64,000 nt of DNA from Trichodelitschia bisporula (taxonomy: Eukaryota), in the NCBI GenBank assembly GCA_010356995.1, contig ML996695.1, positions 195,061 through 259,060 on the forward strand, in the 5' to 3' direction. The position numbers and the translations under genes are program-made. The notes under the pieces were generated by a model. The model had not been told where the DNA came from. It made no database searches and saw only the letters and a program-made list of their open reading frames with translations. The first letter of the stretch is position 1. Each line of letters starts with the position of its first letter. Below, in pieces: positions 10,217-15,980 of the stretch.

Positions 10217-11752
10217 GTTACGAGTTTAGAGGCGCCCTTCGCTTAGAATTGGTGATACACACGGCGCCTTTTTTACGTAGAGAAAACGACGTTATTCCTT
10301 TGTTCTGTCTTTCGCATCGTCGCGTCTTTGACTCCAAATTACCAACAAAAAACAACTGGATTGGTCTCGTTCATACGCCAGAGATGAACGCATGTCGTTA
10401 CCATGTCGTGCGCCCGCCAAGCATGACGGTCGTCGCAACCTCATTCAGGAGCGATTCGTACTACCACTGACCGCACCAGCTCATCCCGCCACTACAAACT
10501 CCAAGATGATGTTGAACGCAGCGGGCCCGCACTCCGCGCCGAGAGGGGCAGATTTTTCGCCCCGCGCTCAACCCCACCTTGGCCACCACCGGGGATGGGC
10601 CTAAAACGAGCAATGCTGATGCCATTCGACCTCAAACTTCCCGCACGGCATCGAATTCGGCAGCAGCAGCATGAAAAGCGCTGCAGCCATGACCCGCTCG
10701 ACGACTGACGACTCCGTTCGTTATCAGCTCTGGGTCCTGATCAGTGGCGGGAAGAGCGGTTGCTATCAAGCGGACGGGTTGGCCGCGTCTCCGCGGTGGA
10801 TTTGCGATGGAATCAGCTAAGCGCGCATGGCCACTGCGAACGGGAATATCGCCATCTAGTCGGACGCCACCACGCGCATAATGGTCGCACGTAACAAGGC
10901 TAGGTGTGCTAGGCGCCGCTTGGTTCCGAGCGAGCCCAAGCGTTGGCCGTGGATATGCAGGCTGATAAGGCATTGGGAAGGCGATGATGGCGCTCTGCGA
11001 TTGAGGTTGTCTCTTGTTATGCACGTTTAGGTAAGTGGACGTGCAGCAACGTGCGCGCCATGCAGCTCACTGACCTATTACCCCGCAGCCGAATGGCCCG
11101 AGTCCGGATCTAGTCTCACATGTTCGGCTGCTTTGGGAAATTTGGAAGGTTAGACCGCAATCGGATGGTTACTGCTATTATGCTGTTGACGTAACGGCAT
11201 GCGTCCCACAGAACTATCGCTCCGACCCAGTCAGCTCGCGGCATGGCTCGGGCGGACGACGGGATGGGATGAGCTTGATCTGACGGTTCGGCCGGGCGAA
11301 GCTTCGCACTAAGAAGTTTATATCCTACTTACCCAACCCGGCCCCGATACGGGGGTTAAAGAGCTATCTCGATGTGCTATGGCGCTCTTTTCGCGCCCCA
11401 TCGCCCTAGGGTGAATCATCGTCATAGGTAAGCACTCTGTAGTAACGTGAATTACCTGATGGCCGATTGACAACCGCGCGAACAGCCCGTCAAATCACCG
11501 GGAGATGCCGAGTCCGTCTCCAGTTCCCAGTTCAACCATCCCGTCCTCAATGCTGTGGAGCTGCATCGTTACCTAACAGCAATCGGCATGGCCTGTATCG
11601 TACCGGCTCGGCTCCTCGCCATGTCCTGCAGCAACGGCTAAATACCGCTCTCTCCCATTGACGGGTTTCCTCAGCTCCCACTCAATCGCATCTCAGCCGC
11701 GTTTCCCCCCTCTTTCCTCCCTTCCCCAGCTTCCCCGCCACCAGACACAACC

Positions 11753-13316
11753 ATGGTGTCCCCACCCCTCCGCCTCGCGGTCGTCAGCCTCGCAGCCCTC
11801 GCCGCCGCCCACGCTGACCACGCGCACGACCAAGAGGTCCTCGAAGGCCCCCTCCCGTCGCTGTGGTACAACACGCTGCCCGGCGACGGCGGCACGCAGG
11901 TCCGTCGCACATCCCTCTGATCAACACCAAGCTAACCCCGCAGGCCGACTCCGTCTTCTCCGGTATCTCGACCTTCGGGCGGATCCAGTACTCGCCGTGC
12001 CTGTCCACCGACTCCGTCAAGTACGACATCGCCTTCATCGGTTCGTCGGCCCGCGTGGGCTCATGCGGGGATTAATGACCTTTGTAGGTGCGCCGTTTGA
12101 CACGGGCACTTCGTACCGCCCCGGCGCGCGCTTCGGGCCCAGTGGCATCAGGCAAGGTTCTCGCCGCCTCAATCTCTAGTATGTAATATCCCTGCTTACA
12201 CGCGCTGTGGCCAAGGCTCACGGCGGGTCGGATTTAGTGGTATGGCACATCCCTATGACGCATCATGCCGTCCGATGAGAACTAAACAGCGTAGGCGGCT
12301 ACAACGTCCCGCTGGCGGCGAACCCGTTCAACAGCTGGGCGAAGGTGATTGACTGCGGCGACATCCCGGTCACTTCGTGAGTTCCCCCCCTAGCATTTCT
12401 CGTTGGAGAGTGGAATTGACAAGATAGCTACGACAACGCCTACGCACTGCAACAGATCGAAGAAGGCCACAACAGCATCCTCTCCCGCGCGCCCAAAACC
12501 AACGCCTCCAAACTAGGCCCCTCAAAGAAGGGCAAGACGCTCCCGCGCGTCATAACCCTCGGCGGCGATCACACGATCACGCTGCCACTGCTGCGCAGCG
12601 TGGTGCGCGAGTACGGGCCCGTCAGCGTGATTCACTTCGACAGCCATCTGTGCGTGCCCTCCCCCTTTCCCCTCCCCTAAGTACCACACCACTGACCCCC
12701 TTCCCCCCAGCGACACCTGGCGCCCGAAAGTCTTCGGCGGCGCACCCTCCACGCAAGCCAGCATCAACCACGGGACCTACTTCTTCCACGCTGCGGAAGA
12801 AGGCCTGCTGGCCAATGACACGAACATCCATGCTGGGATCCGGACTACGCTGTCTGGGCCGAGCGATTATGAGAATGATGGGTACTGCGGATTTGAAATT
12901 GTTGAGGCGAGGGAGATAGATACTATTGGTACGGAGGGGATTATTAAGAAGATACGGGATAGGGTTGGGACGACGAAGCCTGTGTATCTGAGCATTGATA
13001 TCGATACGCTTGATCCTGCGTGTAAGTTGGTTGAGTTGGGGGGGGGGGGGGGGAAGCTCGCTAACGCTCGCTAGTTGCACCTGCGACGGGCACGCCTGAG
13101 ACGGGGGGGTGGTCGACGCGCGAGTTGAGGACTATTATTAGGGGCCTCGAGGGGATTAACTTTATTGCGGCCGATATTGTCGAGGTGGCGCCGGCGTATG
13201 ATACTAATGCTGAGTTGACGACGATGGCGGCGGCGGATGTGCTGTATGAGGTTATGACGCTGATGGTTAAGAAGGGGCCGCTGAGTTTGAGTGAGGGGGA
13301 GAAGGTTGAGTTGTAG
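11753..13316 (+). CDS. Agmatinase/guanidinobutyrase-type ureohydrolase with N-terminal signal peptide; exons 11753-11899, 11944-12040, 12088-12178, 12238-12239, 12295-12376, 12428-12649, 12711-13021, 13075-13316
   Basis: Spliced product has '[18 protein letters not shown]', 'GGDHTI', 'HFDSHLDT', 'NHGT', '[22 protein letters not shown]' and '[10 protein letters not shown]' (binuclear Mn ureohydrolase motifs). Hydrophobic N-terminus; ends in KVEL. Confidence 0.93.
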
Positions 13317-13744
13317 GGTGGTGGTTGGGGATGCTGTTAGCGGTTGGGGATGTTATTGGAGGATGGGGTAAGACTGTAGAGACGCCTGTGAGCATGGTGG
13401 TGCTGGGAAGTCAATATGATATGACGTATCAATGAATGGAGGTGATCCTTCCCTCTGCTAAGTGATGCCCCTTTTGGCAACGTTGGGTCTTCTCTTCGCT
13501 TACAGCCCAACTCCAACCCACTTATGATAGCCAACTCTTATATTCTCTATTGCTCTGTATGCCCAATACACGCTTTCATATCAGCCGCTCACAGCGATCG
13601 GATATACCCAAGCCAAACGCCAGAAGCATCACGATTACCTCTATGTCCATGTACACAAACACACAAACACCCACACACCCACACACGCAGACACCTACAA
13701 AGTAAACCCAACCCTAATCCCACCTATACAAACTCTATCTCCTC

Positions 13745-15571
13745 CTACTCCTCCTTCCTATCCCACCACCGTCCCCACCCCCTCCTCCTCCCCTCCCCCC
13801 CAACAAACCCCCCCTCCTCCCCCTCCCAAACCCTCCTCTCCATCTTCCTGCGTGCCCCAAACGCCCTCGCAAACATCCAAGCCTCCGCATCCCCCCCATT
13901 CCACGCCTCAACCGCCGCCCTCACCCGCGCCACCGCAGGCACCTTACTCTTAACCGCCACCCGTGCCCTAACCAATCTCTCCTCCATCCCCGCCTCAACC
14001 CTAACGCCCTGCTCCTCCTTCTTCGGCCTCCTCTCCGGCCCAGGGACGGGCGTCTCACTCTCCCCGCGCCCCGTCGCATTCGCCGGGATCTGGAAGCCAA
14101 ACACCCAGTCTAGGTCCTCATGCAACTCCGTCTCAGCCGTAAGCCAGAGCGTAGCCCGCCGCGCATACGCCCCCGCGACCATCTCTTTGAACAGCACGAG
14201 CCGACTCGAGGCGCTGGGCCCCGTCCCAAGTACCTCGCCTGTAATCGCCGCGAGCCACGCATTCCGCTTCCCCATCCCCAGCCGCCGGATGAAGCGCACA
14301 TCAAGCATGTCCCGCCCGGAAGTGAGTGCCGTGGTGGTATACGGGTGCGGCACCGGTGCAATGGTGAATACCCCGGTTTTGTTGCGGAAGGCCGGCGGGG
14401 TGGCGATGACCAGCGGATGGCTCGCCAGACACGCCGGACACCCCGGGCGGTTGGGCGGACACGACGTCGGGATCGGGCTCGGGGGACACGCGGTCAGATT
14501 ATGCGCGATTTCAAGCGCCGGGACAGCGAGCACGCCCAGGTGTTTCGCGAGCGGCGTGGGGATGCTAATACCGCCCGGAAACGCAGCTTGCCACGCGCCG
14601 TGCAGATGCGCGTTTATCAGCGCGCTGAGCTGCGCATACCCATGCGCCTTGCGCGCGGCGTCGGCGGCGAACAGCGCATCGGCGACGGGGGCGTACAGTT
14701 TGGACACAGTCTTCGCGTCGTAGTACGCCACCGCGCCAGGCCGCGCATCAATCGCGAAGAGCTCTTTAAACGCGGGGTCCGCGAGGTTGAGCGCCGCCTT
14801 GAGCGCCTCGGGCTTAGCCGCCGCCTGCTCGATCGCGGCCCCCAGCGCCGCATCCACAGCCTTGGAGTCTCCAACATATATCCCGCCGCCCAAGCCCTCA
14901 TACCGCGTGAGACGCGGGTATGTCCCCCTGCGCCAGAACTCGAGGAGGGCATCAGTGGGGGGGCCCATGGGAAACACGCGCCAGTCGGCCAATATCCCCG
15001 CGCCCATCGCGCCCCACGCCGCCCAGCGGTGCAGTTCTTCCTCCATGTTATCCTCGAGCCGCAGGGCTGTGATTTTGTGCACGAGCGCGTGTGTGCCTGC
15101 CTCCGCGCGCCCAAGGACGATGGGTCGGAAACCGGATGCCCACCACGCGCGGCGCCATTGCAGGATGAGCTTTGCCTCCGCCTTGCGCACCGCGGGCTCG
15201 TCGCGCGGATTTGGCGTGTAGAACGTGTACACCGGCGCTCGGGGCGGCAGGGGCGGGAGCACGGCGCGGTTTTCATCCAGGGTGAGGCTGGAGGAGAACG
15301 GGTTGCGCCAGCGCCAGTCCGCGTGCCAGCGCGCGTCGCCAGCGGAAGAATTTGCTTGGGGAGGGGGGCGGTGGATGGGGGCGCGCCAGGGGGTGAGGGC
15401 GAGGGGGGCGGTGGGGAGATGGGAGGTTACGGAGGTGAGGGCGGGGGTGGTGCGGAGGCGGGTTGTGGATAGGAGGAGGAGGGCGGCGAGGAGGGTGAAG
15501 AGGAGTATGAAGCGCCGCGGGAGGATGTAGATGTTGAAGGGGCGACCGAAGAGGGTGCGTTGGATAGGCAT
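13745..15571 (-). CDS. Conserved fungal hypothetical type II membrane protein (608 aa)
   Basis: Intronless ORF with a short cytosolic N-terminus, one TM anchor ('RRFILLFTLLAALLLL'), a Pro-rich stem and a large domain with 'WRRAWWASGFRPIVL', 'SCPPNRPGCPAC' and 'VEAWNGGDAEAW.FARAF' segments; gene-like composition. Confidence 0.8.
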   Translation of the reverse strand: MPIQRTLFGRPFNIYILPRRFILLFTLLAALLLLSTTRLRTTPALTSVTSHLPTAPLALTPWRAPIHRPPPQANSSAGDARWHADWRWRNPFSSSLTLDENRAVLPPLPPRAPVYTFYTPNPRDEPAVRKAEAKLILQWRRAWWASGFRPIVLGRAEAGTHALVHKITALRLEDNMEEELHRWAAWGAMGAGILADWRVFPMGPPTDALLEFWRRGTYPRLTRYEGLGGGIYVGDSKAVDAALGAAIEQAAAKPEALKAALNLADPAFKELFAIDARPGAVAYYDAKTVSKLYAPVADALFAADAARKAHGYAQLSALINAHLHGAWQAAFPGGISIPTPLAKHLGVLAVPALEIAHNLTACPPSPIPTSCPPNRPGCPACLASHPLVIATPPAFRNKTGVFTIAPVPHPYTTTALTSGRDMLDVRFIRRLGMGKRNAWLAAITGEVLGTGPSASSRLVLFKEMVAGAYARRATLWLTAETELHEDLDWVFGFQIPANATGRGESETPVPGPERRPKKEEQGVRVEAGMEERLVRARVAVKSKVPAVARVRAAVEAWNGGDAEAWMFARAFGARRKMERRVWEGEEGGFVGGEGRRRGWGRWWDRKEE

Positions 15572-15980
15572 GGTGCGATGGGGGGCCCGGGGTTATTGCA
15601 TTGTTTTCGTGTGGTGTTGGATGGCGGAGGTTGAGGTTGGGTTGATGCTGGAGTGTGGCGGAAAGGGGCGCGGGAGATTGATTGTGCGGGCGGATGGCCA
15701 GTGCGGGCGGGGTGAGGCTGGGCGGGGAGTGTGCCGGTGGGAAACTGATTGTCGAGTTCGAAACTTGGCGATGAACGGGTAATTGTGCTTGTCACGATGC
15801 GGTGGTGAAGCTATTCAGAGATTTATTGCCTGTTCCGGCGACGCTTGATGCTCAAGGGGCGTCAAAATCACCAGCCAATCAGGCCGCGTCATTTTCTCTA
15901 CCATGAGAGGAGAGATTCGCACGATATCCATCCCAATGCTATTACCACTGCCAAATACCCTCTAGATTCCCGGACATCGC

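Follow-up and report, generated by a model that had tools for sequence, protein, structure and literature searches.

Exons 2 and 3 of alpha-tropomyosin are mutually exclusive, homologous exons, characterized by steric exclusion and by a branch point lying near a donor. We describe here an agmatinase-like ureohydrolase gene of Trichodelitschia bisporula, located in a stretch of 64,000 nucleotides of contig ML996695.1 (the window), which resembles this pair in that one of two similar coding segments would be used and in that a donor-to-branch distance is short. The two segments differ from the alpha-tropomyosin exons in not being separate exons: one ends exon 3, whereas the other supplies the following intron (intron a) with its branch point and acceptor. 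Since exon 3 itself ends with the main segment, mutually exclusive exons proper were rejected as a description.

Alternative-position (AP) splicing is defined, in the accessible part of the source, as the use of introns that overlap while sharing neither donor nor acceptor (PMC2674458). Intron a and an alternative intron, a′, are 59 nt each, offset by 22 nt and overlapping, each with its own signals and with both donor and acceptor differing; the event would thus be AP splicing by definition, and work like a mutually exclusive, homologous exon pair. Unlike AP splicing generally, the shift is equal at both ends, so that frame and protein length are unchanged, and the two segments encode similar peptides. 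Near-intron pairs have been traced, in the available text of PMC2891723, to tandem duplication of AG/GY proto-splice sites. The present locus is similar in having AAG|G at both ends of a′ and GSRR or GSRK in both segments, but near-intron pairs are positions in different species, whereas here both positions appear usable in one gene. The main and alternative 22-nt segments are identical at 41% of their bases, most often at second codon positions (0.65), and may have originated by duplication.

In its main splice form the gene also contains a two-nucleotide exon, TG, between intron a and a further intron, b. Micro-exons of 1–3 nt in Coprinopsis cinerea, including 57 exons of 2 nt in 50 genes according to the part of PMC12230235 at hand, are alike in that a 2-nt coding exon stands between short GT–AG introns, its omission creates a stop and annotation misses it; the plant 1-nt exons of APC11 and VPS55 (PMC8831610, available in part) are likewise tiny internal coding exons. 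TG differs from these known micro-exons in being unconserved (4/69 loci among the matches listed) and in also forming the end of an alternative exon of 24 nt. Stwintrons (nested introns), by the portion of their description available, also form a short, complex fungal intervening sequence removed in two steps; this class was rejected, since introns a and b have complete ends, neither interrupts a splice signal of the other, and TG is retained in the mRNA. A literature search covering few subscription journals found no description of the 22-nt intron slide.

The features of the gene are collected in Table 1. Four of five exon pieces scored above the curated cut-off of the PF00491 profile, and the ureohydrolase metal motifs GGDH, DxHxD, and DxDxxDP are present in the public model P0002. 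The conceptual translation is 397 aa in the main and the alternative isoform alike. Judged by eye, the hydrophobic N-terminus and the C-terminal KVEL suggest that the protein may enter the secretory pathway. A second ureohydrolase gene of the genome (L002, G000:C28:4404-7664) has 52% identity over the query and another loop, GSRRMEARTGWSVY.

Table 1. Features of the ureohydrolase gene (positions are those of the window).
Feature	Position	Strand	Remarks
Agmatinase-like ureohydrolase gene	11753..13316	+	Arginase family PF00491; six other introns are joints in X1/X2 contigs
5′ UTR intron, 58 nt	11428..11485	+	Joint 11425/11484; GT..AG at cut +2
Intron 1, 44 nt	11900..11943	+	Contig joint
Intron 2, 47 nt	12041..12087	+	Contig joint
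Exon 3	12088..12178	+	Main form; alternative form stops at 12156
Segment of 22 nt coding G-S-R-R-L-N-L-Y in main form	12157..12178	+	Spliced out in alternative form
Alternative intron a′, 59 nt	12157..12215	+	Putative; donor CAAG|GTTCTC, CTTAC branch A 12198, AAG acceptor
Intron a, 59 nt	12179..12237	+	GTATGT..TTAG; branch point GCTCAC, A = 12220; contig joint
Dual-use segment, 22 nt	12216..12237	+	Intron a branch point and acceptor; alternative-form coding G-S-R-R-V-G-F-S
Exon TG, 2 nt	12238..12239	+	Main form; tail of 24-nt alternative exon 12216-12239
Intron b, 55 nt	12240..12294	+	GTATGG..GTAG; contig joint
Exon after intron b	12295..12376	+	Contig joints
Intron, 51 nt	12377..12427	+	Contig joint
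Intron, 61 nt	12650..12710	+	Contig joint
Intron, 53 nt	13022..13074	+	Contig joint

Several observations were made on the surroundings of the coding region. An X1 contig extends 807 letters upstream beyond 11350, across 11350-11752, and includes the spliced 5′ UTR intron, indicating either a long leader or one fused to the transcript of a neighbour. The leader holds short open reading frames of 23 aa (at about −248) and 17 aa (at about −165); inspection by eye of the 46 loci that include upstream DNA showed no conserved one, and a blastn comparison of the upstream region in the window with the corresponding regions of the other loci gave no match. Downstream, an open frame of 615 codons on the minus strand (13745-15592) has its end about 430 nt away from that of the ureohydrolase frame, and the two genes are thus convergent. 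The last intron of the ureohydrolase gene holds a long G run (13038-13053). The region 12140-12310 folded no better than shuffled sequences (z 0.76), and no Rfam match was found at E 0.1 within 10500-13600; RNA structure and a riboswitch were thereby rejected.

Splicing was followed in contigs of runs X1 and X2, which stem from one sample of one study and whose identity as RNA is a software guess, no run containing the sequence being on record as RNA. The contigs behaved as spliced RNA, since the gene's other six introns all appeared as joints. In both runs 12178 was joined to 12294 with a single T between (CTCTA-T-G-GCGGC), and the depth of this TG-including joint was 759.7 in X1 and 266.7 in X2.

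For the comparison with other loci, a metagenome contig scan yielded at least 119 loci, and 120 were classed including the window's own: 22 belonged to other families, 17 were without intron a, and 81 had it. After three of the 81 that break off within the intron and nine duplicates had been set aside, 69 distinct loci remained among the matches listed, and in all of them (69/69) intron a occupies the same position in the Tyr codon. Many public models read GSRK(V/L)(R/G)FS just ahead of GGYNVP, the peptide encoded by the final 22 nt of intron a. Among the matches listed, AG|GCTCA stands exactly 22 nt before the acceptor in 42/69 distinct loci (41/68 without the window's own) and is absent in 27/69; in the 42 loci with this element the acceptor triplet of a′ is AAG in 30, TAG in 6, CAG in 5, and GAG in 1. 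The best protein matches of the element loci, among the matches listed, are from Dothideomycetes, Leotiomycetes, Eurotiomycetes, Lecanoromycetes, and Pezizomycetes; loci matching Sordariomycetes, among the same matches, are mostly without the element, and one Cytospora model has it. In three loci (L003, L034, and L082) the end of intron a resembles a decayed element, with GCTCAC shifted or altered and a GGGGTTCAG tail, which suggests that the element may have been lost separately in these.

The element is accompanied by the remaining signals of an overlapping intron. Among the matches listed, a GT lies exactly 22 nt before the main donor in 42/42 element loci versus 9/27 without the element (Fisher p 2.7e-10, kinship ignored), and a second branch motif is present in 41/42 versus 7/27. 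A kin-counted test of element against GT, on a weakly supported FastTree tree of 64/69 rows (5 under 100 aa left out), found 3 independent pairs on well-supported branches, about 2 going the same way and 0 opposite, with a median p of 0.5.

The 22-nt segment also bears the marks of coding sequence. Its entropy is 1.44 at third codon positions versus 0.69 and 0.38 at the others. Along a spanning tree of 38 distinct segment sequences 52 changes were synonymous and 20 non-synonymous, against an expected synonymous share of 26% (dN/dS about 0.14); the other frames gave 7 synonymous versus 65 non-synonymous changes. Removal of a′ and b leaves 397 aa with GSRRVGFS in place of GSRRLNLY. It is thus very probable that the 3′ end of intron a holds a conserved coding alternative, and the data strongly indicate that the conserved feature is an AP event in which either a or a′ is removed, residues 109-112 being LNLY or VGFS accordingly.

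The arrangement of the branch points suggests how donor and acceptor choice could be coupled. The distance from the main donor to the upstream (a′) branch point is 20 nt in the window and has a median of 28 nt (17-46) in 41 loci among the matches listed, against a median of 43 nt (31-94) in a control intron; it was shorter at the main donor than in the control intron in 31/32 paired loci among the matches listed. From the alternative donor to the a′ branch point the distance is 50 nt, which is normal. The a′ branch point would sit too near the main donor for efficient use and would pair instead with the weak upstream GTTCTC donor, which is without a G at +5; the short distance would thus disfavour the stop-making pair and leave the weak donor usable. 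Mixed pairs of the donors and acceptors of a and a′ give stops at 111 and 122 aa on translation, and such products would undergo degradation. We infer a steric coupling of donor with branch point, the limit of which is not absolute, as four tiny introns in other loci have donor-to-branch distances of 28–29 nt.

Whether the alternative form is made was judged from proteins and from the X1/X2 contigs. At the protein level, P0126 is an unbroken frame of 393 aa on a raw Logan contig of 1,542 nt and reads GSRKLGFS. It differs from its cluster mate P0203, a Paecilomyces variotii gene model reading GSRRLNLY, only at residues 47, 104, 106, 107, and 108, so that for this pair the alternative form comes from a raw contig and the main form from a gene model. 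All six full-length Exophiala dermatitidis models (P0188 and P0407-P0411) read GSRKLGFT, again at the protein level; the Thr codon cannot hold the AG of the main acceptor, and the alternative form may have become the sole, constitutive form in this species through loss of the main acceptor.

In T. bisporula itself, an X2 contig with a depth of 52.9 covers 12212-12238 (from bin depths, side 27) and joins on to 12294. The CAAG that precedes the alternative donor is repeated at 12212-12215, making 12212 the point where a′-spliced and intron-retained paths would merge; the contig may accordingly reflect a′ splicing, or else a retained intron or an intermediate. The a′ junction 12156|12216 was absent from the X1/X2 contigs, X1 being without cover at 12214-12285. 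The alternative form was seen in 1/62 raw-contig proteins that cover the site (of 68 chosen by source, the other 6 do not span it), in 0/17 intron-free loci among the matches listed, and in 0/66 short matches reading through. It seems to be a minor isoform or a conditional one, and is probably used in T. bisporula.

Gene models are an uneven guide at this site. The alternative segment was contained in 54/372 proteins, with a clean join to the upstream exon in only 22 of the 54. Models P0006, P0011, P0012, P0098, P0101, P0032, P0140, and P0225 are garbled at the site or carry both segments in tandem, because the dual-use sequence misleads annotation. In P0043, P0048, and P0114 exon 2 is joined to the alternative acceptor; this is in frame and deletes the conserved GAPFD..GIRQ core, and was judged a gene-finder error.

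The possibility exists that the acceptor of a′ is a poison site, the main donor at 12179 being joined to the AAG ending at 12215 so that NMD tunes expression and the coding form is a side product. The 12178|12216 join does make a stop (TA+G, 111 aa), it would span 35–56 nt in the 42 element loci among the matches listed, which is near normal intron size, and the X2 contig places the segment in some RNA. However, a segment behind a stop needs no codon constraint, and an AAG serving the main donor needs no upstream GT, yet purifying selection on the codons and the invariable GT were both found (among the matches listed in the case of the GT). The closeness of the branch point to the main donor argues in the same direction. 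The join also shares only AG with the genome before 12216, leaving the start of the contig at 12212 unexplained. Thus, a poison site is unlikely.

Alternatively, the 22 nt could be a mere conserved splicing signal or an old duplication relic, with no alternative protein in T. bisporula. GCTCA does not vary, which a branch point requires, and both the rarity of the alternative form in transcripts and the absence of the a′ junction from the X1/X2 contigs agree with this. A splicing signal does not account for the three-base periodicity in the middle of the segment, which is unconstrained by the signals, nor for P0126, which carries the swap, and the window keeps an intact donor, branch point, and acceptor of a′. 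A mere signal or relic is therefore very unlikely. The preferred explanation, an AP event together with TG as a passenger, is likely to be correct as a whole.

An earlier note on this DNA had read TG as a micro-exon, which holds in the main form; it missed the alternative coding segment at the 3′ end of intron a. Re-reading of the sequence confirmed its coordinates for introns a and b and for TG. TG is a very short internal exon kept in mature mRNA with a GT..AG intron on each side, and its inclusion, which gives LNLYGGYNVP, was borne out by the contig joints and by the homologues: among the 226 main-type proteins spanning the site (of 412 collected), 225 read YGG and one YVGG. The exon is almost certainly real. 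The earlier note had also credited each intron with its own donor, branch point, and acceptor; the GT..AG ends are present in both, but the branch point proposed for intron b, ACTAAAC, departs from the consensus CTRAY, and a motif scan found no branch point near the end of intron b. As for the sequential splicing that it proposed, two separate steps take place, because the product retains TG, but their order is ambiguous: in an X2 contig intron b is removed by itself with the end of intron a still attached, which is compatible with a b-first order and with the alternative isoform alike.

Intron b, and hence the 2-nt exon, is present in 4/69 loci among the matches listed (the window, L055, L101, and L115), that is, in 3/68 other loci, of which L055 and L101 are near-identical; the two adjacent introns for which the earlier note had proposed to check orthologous loci are thus mostly lacking. 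L055 is the row nearest to the window's gene in the tree, without branch support, and intron b requires 3 changes on this weakly supported FastTree tree (64/69 rows). In the simplest reading intron b is a late gain behind an old intron: a Dothideomycete-like lineage would have acquired it two bases behind intron a, and TG, existing only because intron b arose there, would be a passenger exon whose retention is obligatory. Four further loci (L013, L037, L096, and L102) have an additional intron immediately behind GGYNV, at a distance of about 15 nt from intron a, so that the exon between the two introns is about 15 nt long. Introns appear to be gained repeatedly around intron a.

The earlier note had gone on to propose that skipping of TG acts as an on/off or NMD switch. 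Skipping does create a stop, as it had predicted (TAG, with a product of 111 aa on translation). There was no skip joint listed in X1/X2; since contig assembly drops rare or degraded forms, NMD and assembly could hide the skipped form. A skip switch is not conserved, however, because intron b is missing from 65/69 loci among the matches listed. A stop on omission is moreover commonplace: in the accessible text on C. cinerea, omission of exons ≤3 nt leads to a stop in 63/89 genes (PMC12230235), so that the stop in T. bisporula is expected and gives no sign of regulation. It is highly improbable that the 2-nt exon is the regulated part and its skipping a switch. The structure of the public T. 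bisporula model (P0002, the lone YVGG protein, identical over the query), in which TG was left out, as the earlier note had warned of gene finders, and a single 111-nt intron ends at the CAG 12287-12289 to give an in-frame protein of 398 aa with LNLYVGGY, can be dismissed as the main form, since no such joint is listed in X1/X2 and the extra residue is absent from 225/226 main-type proteins.

The residues exchanged by the AP event fall in a loop of known importance. The gene product belongs to the same family, with the same metal motifs, as Pseudomonas aeruginosa GbuA, Escherichia coli SpeB, and human AGMAT/GDAH; with P0003 as query, the best PDB match was GbuA (3NIO, E 1.6e-55), and SpeB (7LBA) gave 7.2e-50. 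The swapped residues map to the GbuA R72/SpeB W68 loop. When the query was an alternative protein of the R type, HMMER aligned KVR with MIR of GbuA, placing the alternative R on R72; with the main form as query the gap moves, and in an ungapped count the next residue (F) of the alternative form falls on SpeB W68. Since gap placement varies with the query, the assignment to this loop is certain, but that of single residues is not. In GbuA, R72 caps the active site of the neighbouring subunit and may bind the substrate carboxylate, and its human equivalent is the R/G105 variant, which shifts substrate preference (both from the available part of PMC9772407). SpeB W68 holds the agmatine amine from the adjacent subunit, according to the accessible text of PMC8125230. 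At the R72-equivalent place the main form has N, and in the alternative form the residue is G (25 loci), R (15), or S (2) across the 42 loci among the matches listed; T. bisporula has G, not R. A single-sequence fold of P0126 reached a pLDDT of only 36.9.

Because the swapped residues sit in a loop capping the active site of the neighbouring subunit, the swap from LNLY to VGFS may alter substrate preference or kinetics, a proposal from sequence comparison that we hold tentatively. In GbuA, SpeB, and AGMAT/GDAH the loop varies between genes or alleles, whereas here one gene appears to encode two loops by splicing. The name ‘agmatinase’ is by annotation only, and fungal ‘agmatinases’ have been re-assigned as guanidino-acid hydrolases, in the portion of PMC4149782 available.

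In fungi intron retention prevails, and conserved alternative splicing that changes the protein is regarded as uncommon (PMC12861292, available in part). The 2-nt exon alone merely corrects one annotation, two-base exons being already known in fungi, and the dual-use segment accounts for repeated gene-model errors. The intron a/a′ event is widely conserved, shows selection at the codon level, and lies on a loop known to shape substrate use. More speculatively, one gene could have provided two substrate preferences (e.g. for an amine and a guanidino acid) since the ancestor of filamentous ascomycetes, by a 22-nt slide of an intron whose branch point and acceptor are the specificity loop of the other isoform; the choice might answer to the nitrogen source, and both forms may be combined within a single oligomer, with each loop capping the active site of its neighbour. 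As it affects a substrate-shaping loop, the event offers a direct way to test which substrate the fungal ‘agmatinase’ uses.
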